Positions 2,587-39,906 of a DNA stretch of 64,000 nucleotides are shown here, piece after piece. Numbering within the stretch: position 1 is the first letter of the stretch; each line of letters opens with the position of its first letter. Both the position numbers and the translations under genes were made by a program. Source of the stretch: a virus (taxonomy: Duplodnaviria; Caudoviricetes); the IMG/VR virus record IMGVR_UViG_2061766007_000586, positions 192,001-256,000 of that record; one strand, given 5' to 3'. A model generated the notes under the pieces. That model saw nothing but the letters and a program-made list of their open reading frames with translations. It did not search any database and had not been told where the DNA came from.

Positions 2587-5478
2587 ATGGCTAATAGAAC
2601 ATCAATTAATGGTCCTACAAGAAATCCTTTTGGAGTATCATTTATCCAAACTGCGTCTGGAGCAACAATAACTGGTGAAATTAAACGTTATCTTACTTAC
2701 CAAGAAATGGTAAGTGATCCAGCACCAGCTCGTTTAGCTACAGTTGCAAACGGATCTCATGATGATCCTGAAGTTTATACGGTACCAGAAGAACACATCG
2801 GTGGTGTTCTTTATCAAAGAGATTTTGTCACCAATACTTGGGTACTTCTCTATACAGAGAAATCTCTTGCAGTTCCTACTTACATTGAATGGAATTATAT
2901 CCTCAATGTTCCACCATGGGTTGGTGGTGTAACTCACAATCGTAAGAAACTGGTTGAAGATACAGTAGCAGAACTTAGAACTACATATTATTCATTTGAT
3001 AATTTTAAACTTATTATTCCTCCTGCTTCGACCAAAGGTGTCGAACTGGGAGAAGAAATAGTTTTAGAGCAATATAGTGGATATGGTGCTATCATTATTC
3101 CGTATGAAGAGGGTGATATCACTACCACAACTGCTGAAATTATTACTGATAACGATACTGGTAAAACCTATCAGGTTATTTATACCTACGCTCCTGCGAC
3201 TGCTACAGATCTTGGAGATGACGAGCATTCTCTGTTATTAAATGGGCATGCTTATGTTTTTCATTTAATCTGCACAGAAGATGATGATGGACTTCGTTAT
3301 TGGTCTTTAATTACAACTGGTGATCAAGCTTGCGATATGGCTCAAGAGCTCCATAAAGAATATACTGATCACTTGTTAGATCCAAATCCTCATAACCAGT
3401 ATTTAAGAAGAGTAGAGCTTGGTAAATATATCACAGCTGCTACTCCTGAAATTCCTGGCTATATTCGTTTAGCTGTTGAAACAGATCTTGGCGGTGATAA
3501 TAATACAAAAGCTATCACTCCTTATCTGTTAACGCAATACGTATCTCAAGTTCTTACAGTTGATTCCGATTTATGGAAAGAATATGTGGATAATAAATTC
3601 AATATTCTTCGTGTTGATTTAGATGATCATATCAATAACACTGATATTCATGTGACATTGGATGATAAAAACAGATGGAATTCCTTAACTCAAATTGCAC
3701 ATGATGCAGGTGATATGTCATATCACCTTACAGATCCACTTGCTCATTATGATTTATTTGCTACAAAAGCAGATTTAAATCATAATCACATCCCATCAGA
3801 ACAAGAGCAAGCAAATCTTGCTGTAAATGTACACAATGATAGTGAAAACGCGCATACTGCTTTATTTGCTAAAAAGCAAGATGTATTAACATTTGTTCAA
3901 GGTGAAGGAATACAGATCAATACTGTTGGTAATAAAGTTACTATTAGTTGTACTGTTATTCCAACTGCTCCATCCGAACCAGATAAAGATACAACTTATT
4001 CTGCTGGAACTTACATTAACATTACAAATGATAATGTGATCAATAGCTCTTTAGTTGCAGGAAAGTATGTTATTATCGCACCAGCGTTTGATGAAGACGG
4101 TGATCCTATTTACGATCAGGTTGGTCCGGACGCAACTTACAAAATTACGGTTACAGAAGCATCAGCTACACAAAAAGGTGTAACACAGTTAGTTACTGCA
4201 ATTGATGATTCAAATAAAGATAATTTTGATTCAGCAGTGACTCCTGGCGCTTTAACAAATTTATTCTCTCTTTATGAGCATATCAGTGAACGTTTTGGAG
4301 CCAAGGACGCAAATGGTTTAAGAACTATAGATTCGTCTGGTTGGGTTAAATTTCCATCTATGTCAAGTCGTATTTATCCTGGTAAGTGTCTTGCTGTTGC
4401 CTGGGGTATTTCTCCAATTTATTATGATTCAGAATTAAATAGTCCACTTCAGTTTAGCTTAGAACTTGATGGATGCTGCAAATTCTATCGCCTTATTTAT
4501 CCTATATTTGACTTCGTTCCGCTAACTAACAAAAGTGGTAATAAGCTTATTGCCAAAAAATTTGACGGAACTGAAGAAGAATTTACTAGTGCTTACAAAT
4601 GGAGCGATGTGGATATGCATATCCATTACCCTGACGATGGTATATATGGTAAAGTAGCTTCTACTGATTCAGATAAGAATCCAGATGTTTCTGCTATAAC
4701 AAAAATCTTACTTTATATGCAAGATGATACTAATAAAAAACGTTTGTTTAGACTTCGTTGGATGATCATTGGATATACATCTGCATTTGCTGATGAAGTT
4801 TGGGACATTACTCCGACTGTAGCAGTAAAATGCAATCGTGATTGTAGCGGTAACAATGGTAATTATTGGTGGGAGAAAGCATTAACATCTAATTACAAAA
4901 TGTTCAGTTCAGATGACATTGATTATATTGCTCCAAAAGGTTGGATGCAAGCATATCGAGATGTCGGTGATCATTGGCAAATTGAAATAAGTGTTACTTG
5001 GACAATACAGCGTAAAGATAAGGATACTACAAGCGGTAAAAAATATCGAATCAATGGTAAAAACGGTATCCAAGTTGGTGCTATTGCTACTATAGAAAGT
5101 AGATATAAAGATTCGAAAAAAGCTCAAACAAAAGTTGCTATTATTCTAAATGGTGCTGTAATAGATATGGCAACTAAGAAAATCACAGGTATTCAAGTTC
5201 GTTTTATTAACGTTGCTCAAAGCAATACTAATGTTGCTAAAACATATACATCGATAGATATGGGTAACGTTAATGAAAGCAAGAAATTGATTAACATTAA
5301 TGCTTCAGCTGGTCAGATTGAACCAAAATCTAGAAGAACCAATGGATATATATCGACTTCTTATACAGACAATGCTATTCAACTCAAAATGTATATTGAA
5401 GGATGGTCGCAGCATGATGGGGTTACTTATCGCTGTTCGTATAGTCCTAATGATTTGATAACATTAACATATAGTTAA
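2587..5478 (+). CDS. tail fibre protein
   Basis: HLLDPNPHNQY motif, ATxxxxGxxRLA fibre repeats and AGTYINI repeats; 963 aa. Confidence 0.8.
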   Translation: MANRTSINGPTRNPFGVSFIQTASGATITGEIKRYLTYQEMVSDPAPARLATVANGSHDDPEVYTVPEEHIGGVLYQRDFVTNTWVLLYTEKSLAVPTYIEWNYILNVPPWVGGVTHNRKKLVEDTVAELRTTYYSFDNFKLIIPPASTKGVELGEEIVLEQYSGYGAIIIPYEEGDITTTTAEIITDNDTGKTYQVIYTYAPATATDLGDDEHSLLLNGHAYVFHLICTEDDDGLRYWSLITTGDQACDMAQELHKEYTDHLLDPNPHNQYLRRVELGKYITAATPEIPGYIRLAVETDLGGDNNTKAITPYLLTQYVSQVLTVDSDLWKEYVDNKFNILRVDLDDHINNTDIHVTLDDKNRWNSLTQIAHDAGDMSYHLTDPLAHYDLFATKADLNHNHIPSEQEQANLAVNVHNDSENAHTALFAKKQDVLTFVQGEGIQINTVGNKVTISCTVIPTAPSEPDKDTTYSAGTYINITNDNVINSSLVAGKYVIIAPAFDEDGDPIYDQVGPDATYKITVTEASATQKGVTQLVTAIDDSNKDNFDSAVTPGALTNLFSLYEHISERFGAKDANGLRTIDSSGWVKFPSMSSRIYPGKCLAVAWGISPIYYDSELNSPLQFSLELDGCCKFYRLIYPIFDFVPLTNKSGNKLIAKKFDGTEEEFTSAYKWSDVDMHIHYPDDGIYGKVASTDSDKNPDVSAITKILLYMQDDTNKKRLFRLRWMIIGYTSAFADEVWDITPTVAVKCNRDCSGNNGNYWWEKALTSNYKMFSSDDIDYIAPKGWMQAYRDVGDHWQIEISVTWTIQRKDKDTTSGKKYRINGKNGIQVGAIATIESRYKDSKKAQTKVAIILNGAVIDMATKKITGIQVRFINVAQSNTNVAKTYTSIDMGNVNESKKLININASAGQIEPKSRRTNGYISTSYTDNAIQLKMYIEGWSQHDGVTYRCSYSPNDLITLTYS

Positions 5479-22084: not shown

Positions 22085-22483
22085 TTAAAGTTGTATTGAA
22101 TATGTTTTCTTGTATTTCCATAAGCAGAGACCAAGAAAACATGAAATTAGCAGAGTCATAGTTGTAGAAGTAGATGGTTCACCAACTACCCATACTTCGA
22201 TTAATCCATCAAATGGATCTTCTGCAAAATCTACATTGTAAAAACTTTCAGTAGCATATCCAGCGTAGACTTCGTTTTCCGAATTAACCTTGAAAGTCTT
22301 TAATGAAAACTCTTTATTAAGTGCAAATGATTTAGAGAAGTCGTTTAATTTTGCTACATTAGGAATTACTATTCCTTGAGTTAAATCAATCTTATTATAT
22401 TTCGATAAAGCTTCTGTTAAATCAATTCCAAAAGAAGAAAAAGAAATAAATAAAAACAAAAAGAGAAATAATACTTTTTTCAT
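22085..22483 (-). CDS. secreted protein with PEP-CTERM-like C-terminal anchor
   Basis: Signal peptide MKKVLFLFLFLF; C-terminal GEPS...TLLISCFLGLCLWKYKK. Confidence 0.6.
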   Translation of the reverse strand: MKKVLFLFLFLFISFSSFGIDLTEALSKYNKIDLTQGIVIPNVAKLNDFSKSFALNKEFSLKTFKVNSENEVYAGYATESFYNVDFAEDPFDGLIEVWVVGEPSTSTTMTLLISCFLGLCLWKYKKTYSIQL

Positions 22484-22512
22484 AATAGCCCCTCTTATTA
22501 AAATAAAAAAAA

Positions 22513-23325
22513 TCAAGCTAGGTGAGGCTTGACTAGTGTGTATTCACCAATAAGAGTTCATGACGCTCTTACCACACCTTTGTAATCATTCCATGAGCTT
22601 TCAGGTTTGATTACCGTTATCTACCACACAAAGGGACGACAATGTGGTATTGGTTGACTCCTTCCCTGTGGCAGCTGCTTTAACAGCTTTCTCGTCAACT
22701 TTTGAATTCATGCTCGTTTATCAAGGTGTTACCAGAACATAAACGAATGGAGAATTCCTTAGCCATTAATATTGGTGATTACACGTAGGCACTGTAATCA
22801 ATAGTTATTTTAACCCGCAGGTATGTTACTTCGATCCGGACCACGGATTTACTGAACACACAATCGCGACTATCTTTGCACAGGGATCTTAGTCCTGTAC
22901 CTAAGCTCTAGAAAACTGACCGTTCAAGCCCTGAATCGATCAATGGCAACTTATAGGACTTCAGCTTCAAGCAGGATAATTCGTTGGCAATTTCAATCTG
23001 AGCTGCAGCTAACAGCTTAGCCAATATATCTCGAAACCCATCTGCCTTTGCACAGATCCTGATAATGATCTATGCCATCTAGAAGTTCACCATGTTAGGG
23101 TGACATGATGGATGCTGTATGATCCCGTACCGTAGCCTTGCTAGTGGCCAAACGATACACAGCTTTGCTTATTTGCAGCTAATCCTAGGTATAAGCCAGA
23201 CCCAGGTCTACACTTTCTGAGTTGCAATCTCTAAGCGTAGAAATAATGAGTACAGTGATCAAATCGATATTGATCATTTGCATGGAGCAAGTTTTACAGG
23301 CCATTTAAACTAACTGTACTCCTCT
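22513..23325 (-). ncRNA. ~810-nt ornate ncRNA (GOLLD/ROOL-class candidate)
   Basis: No ORF of 60 aa or more, raised GC, dense hairpins with GCAA/GAAA-type loops; ends in TCAAGC...GCTTGA-T7; lies in a phage tRNA region. Confidence 0.7.
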
Positions 23326-23330
23326 AGTTC

Positions 23331-23420
23331 GGTCGCATAGTAGGATTCTTAGTTTAACCCACATCTGAAGTGCGTTCGCTTCATGTCTTCGCCCGTCGGT
23401 TACTTAGACGATATGCAACC
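23331..23420 (-). ncRNA. tRNA-like RNA E1 (expanded D and T loops, non-canonical anticodon loop)
   Basis: Terminal helix GGTTGCATA/TATGCGACC, D-arm TCGTCTAA...AAGAC, stem TGAAG/CTTCA, T-stem GTGGG/CCTAC. Confidence 0.65.
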
Positions 23421-23428
23421 ATTTTTTG

Positions 23429-23514
23429 TTGCTGATGAATATTCACAGGGATTCCAACCCTGGTTTCCGTGCTCGGCGTCCTGGCATTAGACGATGAGAT
23501 ATCCATTTCAGCAA
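23429..23514 (-). ncRNA. tRNA-like RNA E2 (miniature anticodon arm, extended acceptor stem)
   Basis: TCGTCTAATGCCAGGAC, CCG-AGCA-CGG, CAGGG-TTGGAAT-CCCTG, outer helix TTGCTGA/TCAGCAA. Confidence 0.7.
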
Positions 23515-23600
23515 TGTCTACGAATATGGCGGGGCTGCTAGTCCCGATTTCCTGCTAAGGTGTCCTCGCTTTAGACGACATCATATCCGTTTTTGACATT
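23513..23600 (-). ncRNA. tRNA-like RNA E3 (miniature anticodon arm, extended acceptor stem)
   Basis: TCGTCTAAAGCGAGGAC, CCT-TAGC-AGG, CGGG/CCCG T-stem, outer AATGTC..ACGGATATG/CATATTCGT.GACATT. Confidence 0.7.
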
Positions 23601-23620
23601 ATAGGAATATATACTTGAAA

Positions 23621-24223
23621 TTAGAATGAATATGGCCACTCGCCAAGCCATGTGATAAATCCAGTACGTTCAAATGCAGGACTGTCATGAACCAATACGC
23701 CAGTCGATGCATCAACGAAAATCAATCCTTGATTATTTCCGTAAATGTACTGAGGATTTGTATCATTCGGACCGAGTTGTTTTCTTAAGATAACTCGTTT
23801 CGTATGTGGCTTAGGATTCTGAGTCAACACTTTCAGATAAGACTCTTTAAATGTAATCGTGACCTTTTCCTTGATGATCGGAACATCTTCTTCAACAATT
23901 AAAGATGGGATCACAAGAACTTCATCCTTCTCTAAAGTATGACGTATCATTACAATATTTACATCATGACTCGTATTACCATCAGAGAGGACTTGAAATA
24001 CATTCGTAATTTCAGCTACATCACTTCCACCACCAATATCGATGTAATTTGCAAGAAGAATACCGCATTCATACCAGCGATAATTCTTGTAAACATCATT
24101 CATGTACTGGAGGTCTTCCTTATTGATGTCTTCAACATTTAAGATACGAGTTGTATCTTGCATTGAAGTGCATGCTGAAGTGAGAAGCATGAGTAATGAA
24201 GCAAGCAATAATAATTTCTTCAT
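23621..24223 (-). CDS. lipoprotein (paralog of 24243..24935)
   Basis: Lipobox LTSAC; NPQYIYGN, FVDASTG and LGEWP shared with the neighbour. Confidence 0.75.
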   Translation of the reverse strand: MKKLLLLASLLMLLTSACTSMQDTTRILNVEDINKEDLQYMNDVYKNYRWYECGILLANYIDIGGGSDVAEITNVFQVLSDGNTSHDVNIVMIRHTLEKDEVLVIPSLIVEEDVPIIKEKVTITFKESYLKVLTQNPKPHTKRVILRKQLGPNDTNPQYIYGNNQGLIFVDASTGVLVHDSPAFERTGFITWLGEWPYSF

Positions 24224-37678: not shown

Positions 37679-39160
37679 TTAACCAACCGTGATCTTTGCA
37701 TAACGTTCTGCGTTCAGAACGTTAAGCATCATCTCGATTGGCGTATCGGTGATGGCTCTCATCACATTCTTGAAGGATGAAACGGCTTGGCCCGAGCAGC
37801 AGATAGCACCCTTCCTGTCTTTATCGACGTGGAAGGTATCGTGCCTTGACTCTACGTTCCAGAATACGATACCAGGAATCTGGTATCCTTCTTCTTCGAA
37901 ACGTTTCTTGAGAGAATCATAGAACACCCAGTCAGTGTAGCGAGTACCTTCATCGATTTCCATATCGGAAATGATGATGATAGCCTTCGGCATATCTTCT
38001 GGAGCAACATGATGCTCTGTTGCGATCTTGAGAATCTTCTCAAACGCAGCTTCCAGATTTGTCGAACCACCCCAATCATTAGTATTGATACTTTGGAGTT
38101 TCTGAGCGAGCGTCTGACCCTTCAGGTGATGAAGAGTACAGTTCGAAGAGAACGACATCCACAGGTCCTTATAAGGACCTACGTTACGTTCGGCAAAGTA
38201 AATTGCCAAACCAACTGCAGATGCCATAGGACGACCAGCCATACTTCCCGAAGTATCGGCGATTACGATTGCAGACGAATTGCCTACAACGTAGTTCGGA
38301 AGGGACTTCCACTGACCTTCGACGATAGGATCTTCTTCGAAAGTGACCCCATTCCAATCCCATCTTCTTCCTATGTACTTTTCCACAAGATTGTACGGAT
38401 ACAGAGTACCAGCATTGATCTTGGCAGTACCGGCTGTGAGATTCTTGAGATAATCGAAGAAACGATCTCCATCGTGTTTCGGAAATGCCATCTTGTAGCG
38501 AAGCATGGCATGACTCGGAACAGCTTCGTAGTTGATTTCGTTCCAAGTACCATTCGACATGTGTGTTTCCACAATGTTGATGTACTTCCTCAAGCCACGA
38601 AGAAGACGCTTGAACATGCGTACTTCCATTCCGAACTTCAGGGCAGTCATGATGCCAAGTTTACGGGTCTCTTTGGAAGATCCGTCTGGAGTTTTAATCC
38701 ACTTGGCAAGAAGACTTACCGGCTTGTTCTGTCCCATGGCTTCAAGATCAGCCACGAACTGCTTCTTCATCGAAACCCACATATCGTCCTCTAAAGGAGT
38801 TCCGATCAGTGTGTATAAGTCGTCATAACGACCATACTCACCAATCAGATCGATATTGGGTCTGATACATTCCGGGTAGTGCTGGGCAGCATACTTCAGA
38901 ATCTGACGGAATGATTTCCTCTCACCGAGGCCTTCTCTTACATCACGACTGTAAAAGAGGCATCTCGTGGCGAGAAGTTTGTCCTCTGCATAGGCGTCAG
39001 AGAACAGACGTTCGATGCGGGTCTGCTCCGTGTTACGAAGAGCACCGCAGACACTGAAAAAGTCCAGAACTTTACTACCTGTCGTGTTAAGACAGGTAGC
39101 TCCATTTTCGGTGCGAGAGTGGGTTGCTTCCTTTGCGAAAGCGTTTGCAAATGTTGTCAT
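37679..39160 (-). CDS. DUF2828-family Ro60/TROVE-like protein with C-terminal vWA domain
   Basis: TENGA, LDFF, RDVREGLGER, YGRYDDL and LLAKW helical region; vWA MIDAS DTSGSM, WGGSTN, ISDMEID and IVFWNV. Start MTTFANAF after AAAGGAG. Confidence 0.85.
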   Translation of the reverse strand: MTTFANAFAKEATHSRTENGATCLNTTGSKVLDFFSVCGALRNTEQTRIERLFSDAYAEDKLLATRCLFYSRDVREGLGERKSFRQILKYAAQHYPECIRPNIDLIGEYGRYDDLYTLIGTPLEDDMWVSMKKQFVADLEAMGQNKPVSLLAKWIKTPDGSSKETRKLGIMTALKFGMEVRMFKRLLRGLRKYINIVETHMSNGTWNEINYEAVPSHAMLRYKMAFPKHDGDRFFDYLKNLTAGTAKINAGTLYPYNLVEKYIGRRWDWNGVTFEEDPIVEGQWKSLPNYVVGNSSAIVIADTSGSMAGRPMASAVGLAIYFAERNVGPYKDLWMSFSSNCTLHHLKGQTLAQKLQSINTNDWGGSTNLEAAFEKILKIATEHHVAPEDMPKAIIIISDMEIDEGTRYTDWVFYDSLKKRFEEEGYQIPGIVFWNVESRHDTFHVDKDRKGAICCSGQAVSSFKNVMRAITDTPIEMMLNVLNAERYAKITVG

Positions 39161-39174
39161 AATAAAGCTCCTTT

Positions 39175-39234
39175 CATGACACGTTAAATGCATAAATTTG
39201 CAGTTTATGAAATTGGGTTTGCTGTTAGCGTCAC
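39175..39234 (-). ncRNA. ACAGCAA-module element a (abuts the DUF2828 RBS)
   Basis: TGACGC-TAACAGCAAA...CATAAA-CTGCAAA-TTTATG...GTGTCATG. Confidence 0.7.
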
Positions 39235-39771: not shown

Positions 39772-39906
39772 TGGTGGAGAGGGTAGGATTTTCACCTACA
39801 CATAGAAGTCCATTGATCTATTTAATTAAAAATAAATTTGCGGCGAGTGTCACACTGCAACATGACACCACATAAATACTTCTTGCTCTAATTGAGCTAC
39901 CTCTCC
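39772..39906 (-). ncRNA. tRNA-like RNA f with the module replacing the anticodon loop
   Basis: GGAGAGG/CCTCTCC-ACCA, D-arm GCTC/GAGC, AGAAGT/ACTTCT enclosing GTGTCATG..TGTGACAC-TCGCCGCAAA. Confidence 0.75.

Follow-up and report, generated by a model that had tools for sequence, protein, structure and literature searches.

Mimicry of tRNA is a known principle, with examples in mascRNA, YrlA, tmRNA and the tRNA-like structures of viruses. tRNA-like elements can also define or protect the ends of other RNAs, as in MALAT1/mascRNA and at the ends of plant mitochondrial mRNAs, and the t-elements of plant mitochondria act as RNase P/Z signals beside other transcripts. In YrlA, a loop seals the acceptor and the anticodon stem opens into a helix that binds Ro60. 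Phage T4 makes two stable RNAs, species 1 and 2 (rnaC and rnaD), which are encoded in a tRNA cluster or are tRNA-like and do not decode. RNAs of the mascRNA type are characterized by two conserved D-loop guanines and a UUCRA T loop (PMC11693755). A survey of structured RNAs in phages mentions 'tRNA or tRNA-like' candidates and does not describe the design reported below (PMC10690425), and our literature search found no account of modules that are tandem, glutamate-type and stub-anticodon and are joined to a large phage RNA.

We analyzed a window of 64,000 nucleotides, bases 192001-256000 of a 318.6-kb IMG/VR phage record (a giant rumen phage). A preliminary description of this window had named three tandem tRNA mimics, E3, E2 and E1, that directly follow a promoter variant and lead into a giant RNA. 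These three were found as described, but the count was one short, as a fourth module, E0 (23248-23321), follows E1. E0 to E3 are conserved, independently folding, non-decoding modules derived from tRNA.

The locus and its predicted transcription unit

The features of the locus, in window coordinates, are as follows.

~23598-23613, minus strand: promoter-like motif, an exact match to a pattern enriched in the window, with a TATAAT-like -10 element at 23603-23598
23516-23597, minus strand: module E3 with its outer helix (core 23520-23590), supported by its fold, by orthologues in eight other loci and by covariation
23431-23512, minus strand: module E2 with its outer helix (core 23435-23506, 72 nt), by alignment a tandem paralogue of E3; of all the modules, the one most like a tRNA
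23331-23420, minus strand: module E1, a 90-nt cloverleaf without CCA, supported by pairing and by compensatory changes in relatives
23248-23321, minus strand: module E0, of the same design, directly after E1; also the first part of the ~250-nt short forms
22535-23247, minus strand: body of the large non-coding RNA; ORFs of 39 aa at most, and no Rfam match
22511-22534, minus strand: hairpin resembling an intrinsic terminator, then a U-run; likely 3' end of the transcript
37027-37101, minus strand: real tRNA-Glu(UUC), the one genuine tRNA of the genome with a resemblance to E2 and E3

All 16 tRNAs called by ARAGORN in the window lie on the minus strand. The ~1.1 kb between the genes at 23621-24223 and 22085-22516 contains no ORF longer than 41 aa and has a slightly raised G+C content. 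The promoter-like pattern occurs at 23 sites in the window relative to ~6 expected, frequently just 5' of tRNA genes. Its copy ahead of E3, on the minus strand, is kept in all long-form relatives, and in short-form relatives the same motif stands immediately before E0. No further promoter-like or terminator-like site was found in the ~1.1-kb region between this motif and the 3' hairpin. Because such a motif stands at the start, such a hairpin at the end and neither in between, E3, E2, E1, E0 and the body probably form a single transcription unit, which agrees with the earlier statement that the modules lead into a giant RNA. The conserved G-U pairs of the stems would be A-C mismatches on the opposite strand, which indicates that the minus strand is the sense strand.

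Based on the usual spacing from a -10 element, transcription is predicted to start near 23591, the first base of the E3 closing helix. In the short forms the predicted start is likewise the first base of the E0 closing helix, and the first module would therefore probably have no 5' leader. One possible, though rather doubtful, role for the modules is as processing or stability elements that set the ends of the large RNA and shield them, either by recruiting the host enzymes of tRNA maturation (RNase P, RNase Z and, in the A-rich linkers, RNase E) or simply as a 5' cap. Such a role would suit modules that lie between promoter and body with no other signal in between and are joined by short, A-rich linkers, and the predicted start in both long and short forms would sequester the 5' end in the closing helix. 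Mimicry of the elbow is also sufficient for RNase P and RNase Z in the case of mascRNA (PMC11693755). The over-long closed stems and the predicted start at the first base of the E3 stem nevertheless argue against a classical RNase P substrate in E3, which probably has no leader at all. Leader and trailer are held in helices of 9-14 bp with no single-stranded 3' tail, and three or four tandem copies would be redundant for the definition of one end.

Fold, anticodon-side arms and descent of the modules

The preliminary description had noted a tRNA-Glu-type D arm in all three of its modules. This motif, UCGUCUAA(N4-12)GAC, occurs four times in the 64 kb (in E1, E2, E3 and tRNA-Glu) compared to 0.16 expected, and the longer pattern of E2 and E3 (D arm, stub and GGAAA) occurs twice in the window compared to 0.00 expected. 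E3, E2 and E1 each form a closed four-way junction, both when folded alone and within the minimum-energy fold of the whole 1.1-kb RNA (fold z-scores of -2.2, -0.9 and -2.1, respectively).

E3 has a 9-bp closing helix with an outer GUC/GAC helix, a tRNA-Glu-type D arm and a 4-bp T-like stem with a 9-nt loop, and no CCA. Its anticodon side is a stub of 3 bp and a 4-nt loop, CCU-UAGC-AGG (23551-23560). In E2, a 10-bp closing helix with one bulge and an outer helix encloses the D arm, again without CCA. The E2 stub is CCG-AGCA-CGG (23467-23476), and both stubs are exactly those given earlier. The T loop of E2, UUGGAAU (23451-23457), is the only one of tRNA type among E1-E3. The variable region is four nucleotides long in both modules, which align collinearly. 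In a joint alignment 97.5% of cells are paired and five of 20 pairs have changed on both sides, relative to 29-51% of cells paired in slid controls. A covariance model built from E2 and E3, termed R1, scores them at 92 and 85 bits, and a search for extra copies in the phage's own 318-kb genome with this model recovered only E2, E3 and, as a weak match (E about 0.01-0.02), tRNA-Glu. By these alignments, E2 and E3 are tandem duplicates.

When compared with the real tRNAs of the window, E2 is closest to tRNA-Glu in D arm and T arm alike, and so is the D arm of E3. The two modules clearly descend from a glutamate tRNA. In these arms E2 differs from tRNA-Glu chiefly by GC in place of GG in the D loop and by G in place of C at position 56 of the T loop; from a reading of these two sequences, it is possible that the elbow pair has been swapped to C19:G56. 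Complementarity between D loop and T loop was rejected as a class-wide trait. Most units allow such pairing to be drawn, but the register is so free that chance would often produce it, and it is used here for E2 alone, where the comparison with tRNA-Glu fixes the positions.

E1 has only the start of the D arm in common with E2 and E3 and gives no match to R1. Its closing helix has 9 bp, and its D stem, GUCU/AGRC, switches between U-G and U-A among relatives, with a small hairpin nested inside the D loop. The 8-nt loop reported for its anticodon-like arm was found (7-8 nt, 23371-23378), but the arm is not shrunken and retains an invariant stem of the full 5 bp. Nearly every relative has a loop of its own, in which almost all positions differ and only a central CG is constant, while the loci are otherwise 85-91% identical. 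The T stem has 5 bp and an invariant 13-nt loop. Across relatives 99% of cells are paired, and two pairs are compensatory, both in the closing helix. A covarying complement of the variable loop was not found elsewhere in the RNA, and pairing of this loop with another part of the RNA was rejected, as matches within the same RNA were no longer than matches to the RNAs of other loci.

E0 has an 8-bp closing helix, a tRNA-Gly-like D arm, a stub arm and a T-like stem of 6-7 bp with a 7-nt loop, and nine of its 19 pairs are compensatory when long and short forms are compared. Its anticodon-like arm varies in size, from 5 bp and an 8-nt loop in the short-form loci L004 and L005 to 3-4 bp and a 4-5-nt loop in the window and L002. 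A real tRNA-Gly(UCC) is located upstream in short-form phages (L004:5633-5706 and L005:5642-5715), where it stands in place of E1-E3. The D arm of E0 resembles that of this tRNA at the equivalent place, which suggests that E0 was derived from a glycine tRNA. The arm on the anticodon side is the least constrained in each of the four modules, which keep their closing helix, D arm and T arm.

ARAGORN made no tRNA call at E1, E2 or E3. On the modules' strand, an Rfam search of E1-E3 and the body gave no match at the gathering score or at E<=10, and this includes the canonical tRNA family (RF00005) for E1-E3. The closing helices of 9-10 bp, extended by outer helices of 3-5 bp, exceed the 7 bp of a tRNA acceptor. 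No CCA follows them, whereas 15 of the 16 window tRNAs called by ARAGORN encode it. A 5-bp/7-nt anticodon arm with a conserved anticodon was found in none of the three, and the usual D-loop GG is present in no module; the register of E3 and E1 was assigned by eye only. The over-long, CCA-less acceptor stems of the preliminary description were thus borne out, and so was its view that the modules, which have a stub or a hypervariable loop, cannot decode. It was only partly right on two other points. T stems occur in all three modules, but a tRNA-type T loop is restricted to E2. Likewise, the term 'elbow-only mimic' suits E2, with its T-loop motif and possible C19:G56 swap, and does not suit E3 or E1, with their non-canonical T loops. 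The same features weigh on the processing role, since the D-loop guanines of the mascRNA type are missing and two of the three T loops are non-canonical, and RNase P would have no need of the glutamate-type D-arm start that three modules have kept.

Elsewhere in the window, two over-long Rfam tRNA matches without an ARAGORN call lie on the minus strand at 39775-39906 (132 nt, 42 bits) and 31440-31551 (112 nt, 47 bits). They look like tRNA bodies with large inserts.

Relatives of the locus and similar modules in unrelated phages

Close kin of the phage were not found in public phage records or IMG/VR by blastn, two protein-seeded scans and two exact DNA patterns. The relatives are metagenome contigs only, reached through homologues of the upstream lipoprotein and one DNA pattern, a conserved motif of the body that found four JGI contigs. 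The long form is present in eight more distinct loci of rumen phages (L002, L003, which is the L016 contig, L009, L013, L014, L015, L017, and L018). When the window was compared with L002, L009, L017, and L018, DNA identity was 63-67% in the flanking genes, 90-95% in the body, and 76-93%, 93-98%, and 85-91% in E3, E2, and E1, respectively. The pattern is one of strong purifying selection on the modules together with the body, or of their recent joint spread.

The mini-arm architecture was found to be conserved in these related phages. The T-like stem of the E3 orthologues shows two compensated changes and two imperfect variants, and in L017 this stem has two mismatches. Their stub stem has U-A or U-G, or is extended to 4 bp, and the stub loop changes freely; in L013 and L018 the stub has 4 bp and a 6-nt loop, and the D loop is larger. 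E2 retains 27 pairs across relatives. The preliminary description had proposed a look at covariation among homologues, and compensatory changes do support the stems of E1, E2, and E3. It is highly improbable that the modules are functionless tRNA pseudogenes in decay after duplications within the tRNA island. Derivation from tRNA, loss of decoding and escape from tRNA finders would all be expected of such remnants, as would the mismatches in the E3 T-like stem of L017. However, conservation far above that of the flanking genes argues against decay, and compensatory changes, stub hairpins that are clean instead of randomly damaged, and a design common to unrelated phages all point the same way.

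The relatives also differ in which modules they carry. In L009, E2 with its outer helix is precisely missing and all else is present. Five loci (L004-L008) have a form of ~250 nt that begins with E0 right after the promoter motif and is without E1-E3. The smallest form, a core of ~110 nt directly 3' of the lipoprotein gene in L050 (1726-1830, plus strand), has no tRNA-like module and no Rfam match. These cases identify the modules as add-ons, gained and lost as cassettes, and the series of ~110-nt, ~250-nt, and ~1.1-kb forms shows growth by accretion of modules at the 5' side. That E2 can be lost without any other change is a further difficulty for a role in processing.

Nested RNA sizes with modules added at the 5' side might also be expected if tRNA genes captured from the island were reused as four-way-junction blocks, or structural arms, of the giant RNA, where they would shape or multimerize it or display tRNA-like cargo, a role that has been suggested for the tRNAs embedded in GOLLD. 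GOLLD and ROOL RNAs do occur near tRNA islands, and some GOLLD RNAs have a covalently linked tRNA (10.1101/2024.12.08.627333; PMC12990946); the GOLLD RNA of L031 has an internal tRNA match, and the modules described here are as conserved as the body. We consider such a structural role unlikely, as the folds are local and the modules showed no long-range pairing with the body, they come and go like cassettes, the body matches neither GOLLD nor ROOL, and the same design is seen in free small RNAs with no large RNA nearby.

The latter were recovered from IMG/VR with a relaxed pattern (glutamate-type D arm, short stub, and GGAAA), which matched 18 loci not related to the window phage. The working class (R1) was defined by a UCGUCUAA...GGAC D arm, a CC...GG stub, a 4-nt AAAY variable region, a T-type hairpin and the lack of CCA, all of which are found in E2 and E3. 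The R1 model scores 20-37 bits (E 2e-6 to 0.06) on many unrelated IMG/VR loci. The pattern demanded the glutamate-type D arm and CC...GGAAA, so their invariance across phages is by construction and not evidence of constraint. In an alignment of 17 units that was fitted to the model, 94.7% of cells are paired and 16 of 20 pairs change on both sides. On the basis of these comparisons, the stub-anticodon, glutamate-type modules are a wider phage class. Its loci include the following.

L048:9861-9918, minus strand: single unit, a weak tRNA in Rfam (37 bits)
L045:7575-7634, plus strand: single unit, then a U-run
L034:7227-7277, minus strand: single unit, then a U-run
L035:6035-6105, minus strand: two-unit arrangement
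L047:300-369, plus strand: two-unit arrangement
L036:351-500, plus strand: two units beneath one closing helix
L041:1385-1509, minus strand: two units beneath one closing helix
L031:7696-7830, plus strand: two units beneath one closing helix

Single units, such as that of L048, have a closing stem of 5-6 bp, a stub of 3-4 bp, and canonical D and T loops. In L035 and L047 the 5' GGG and 3' CC ends could pair as a second stub, an arrangement that we parse by eye as a circular permutation. Stand-alone members occur with no large RNA nearby. Some modules of unrelated phages lie 10-20 nt 3' of a stop codon and end in a U-run, which would be consistent with processing or stability elements. Eleven pattern matches in bacterial genomes are about what chance would give by a rough estimate and were not counted as class members; where their flanks were read, a T-type hairpin is possible in L022 and L029 and absent in the rest.

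A gene for a YqeY-like protein (PF09424, 32.6 bits) lies immediately 3' of the twin stub-tRNA RNA of L036 (501-872, plus strand), and the record behind L031 also has a YqeY-like family. The YqeY/GatB tail domain binds the D loop and elbow of tRNA, which makes the YqeY-like protein a candidate partner of the class. No YqeY-like gene was found in the window phage, nor, among genes for tRNA repair or binding partners, were genes for RtcB, a CCA-adding enzyme, or an Rnl-type ligase. L031 also encodes a GOLLD RNA (4731-5193, plus strand; Rfam, 167 bits) with an Rfam tRNA match inside it (4793-4864), 2.5 kb 5' of that phage's stub-tRNA unit.

Proposed role and comparison with known systems

We tentatively favor a role in which the modules are autonomous, functional mimics of the tRNA body that occupy a tRNA-binding factor. 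One phage promoter would drive E3, E2, E1, and E0 as the 5' part of the ~1.1-kb RNA. The D arm and T-type arm would be held under a long, CCA-less helix, with the anticodon arm reduced to a dispensable stub or a freely varying loop. Each module would then be recognized by a factor specific for the core or elbow of tRNA instead of the anticodon or 3' end, and this factor would be occupied or titrated, with several copies per highly expressed transcript raising the dose. The comparisons show the structure of the modules, purifying selection on them, the affinity of E2 and E3 to tRNA-Glu, their behavior as cassettes and the occurrence of this design in other, unrelated phages. The binding of a factor and its nature are inferred, as is whether the modules remain attached to the large RNA.

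Mimicry of the tRNA body is favored because the unit recurs free-standing in other phages, because copies are additive and dispensable one by one, because three modules retain an identical D-arm start, and because the part that was discarded is what a decoder or an anticodon nuclease would need. Free variation of the stub loops and the E1 loop, next to stems and D arms that are held, is consistent with this role, and so is the persistence of the local folds in the full-length fold. The same can be said of module identity at 76-98% where flanking genes reach 63-67%, of the compensatory pairs in E0-E3, of the closeness of E2 to tRNA-Glu in both D arm and T arm with differences compatible with a swapped 19:56 elbow pair, and of cassette-like loss in L009 and in the ~250-nt and ~110-nt forms. 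Stand-alone and twin small RNAs of the same design in unrelated phages also fit, as does the YqeY-like gene next to a class unit in one lineage, although the window phage is without such a gene. A tRNA-like elbow is plausible for E2 only, as E3 and E1 are without a canonical T loop and the D-loop GG is found nowhere. Furthermore, the cross-phage class was found by a biased pattern and its alignment was fitted to the model, and the stop-codon and U-run context of some stand-alone relatives equally fits a processing or terminator role.

A more specific possibility, which we judge improbable, is that the modules are uncleavable pseudo-substrates that act as an RNA sponge, binding a host factor which recognizes the core of tRNA, and thus as an RNA-based counter-defense. 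The target could be a tRNA-targeting immune nuclease, for example, or a protein that reads the D helix of glutamate tRNA, and a giant phage RNA, highly expressed, would display the several copies or release them. Defenses that cleave tRNA are known in large number, and one of them is resisted by phage tRNAs whose anticodon stem is shortened (PMC12445682; PMC13096335), which makes a competing, uncleavable body plausible but unproven. If the sponge were real, unrelated phages would have the same device in their stub-tRNA small RNAs.

Phage tRNA islands are read mainly as a codon supply or as replacement for tRNAs destroyed by defense. Conserved non-decoding tRNA bodies point to a second use of tRNA shape by phages. 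To this the present case adds clear descent from glutamate tRNA with a possibly compensated elbow swap, and cassette-like gain and loss. E2, at 72 nt, offers a small, defined bait for a binding partner, and the covariance model can be used to map the class.

Some of these traits set the modules apart from other non-decoding tRNA relatives. To our knowledge, neither the tandem glutamate-type stub design nor the fusion to a 1.1-kb RNA is a feature of the T4 stable RNAs or of t-elements. Phage decoder tRNAs share with the modules a shortened or altered anticodon stem, which in their case resists a host tRNA-recognizing nuclease, but they decode and replace lost host tRNA, whereas E1-E3 could at most compete for the nuclease (PMC12445682). 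The YrlA-type Y RNAs of bacteria and phages are likewise non-decoding tRNA mimics without a free CCA end (RF02553; PMC4201824). Their topology is the opposite one: in E1-E3 it is the acceptor side that is closed and the anticodon side that carries a cap. E1-E3 have no Ro60-binding helix and gave no Rfam match to RF02553. The same phage does encode a Ro60-like RNA-binding protein (37679-39193, minus strand; phrog_850, E 3e-124), 14 kb from the modules.

The mascRNA and menRNA of MALAT1 and MEN-beta are also tRNA look-alikes with an altered anticodon arm, are co-transcribed with a long non-coding RNA, are not aminoacylated and act by mimicry of the tRNA body (PMC11693755). They differ in being eukaryotic, single-copy elements at the 3' end, with a long stem in place of the anticodon arm and two conserved D-loop guanines that form the elbow, and in being cleaved by RNase P/Z and receiving CCA. 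The modules of the window stand in tandem at the 5' end and have stub arms, long closed stems and no D-loop GG; they gave no Rfam match to the mascRNA-menRNA family (RF01684), whose D-loop guanines are missing and whose T-loop-like sequence is seen in E2 only.

Neither GOLLD (RF02032) nor ROOL was matched in the window at the gathering score, or in 22300-23800 at E<=10, by the same Rfam search that detects GOLLD in L031. The likeness to them lies in the arrangement, as GOLLD and ROOL are large, ornate phage non-coding RNAs in tRNA islands, covalently joined to tRNA-shaped units, with a conserved core and a 5' part that varies (10.1101/2024.12.08.627333; PMC12990946). The tRNA within GOLLD is a real one, placed in an internal linker; here, tandem non-decoding mimics stand at the 5' end, and their predicted covalent link to a new 1.1-kb RNA would be a parallel to the unexplained link between GOLLD/ROOL and tRNA.
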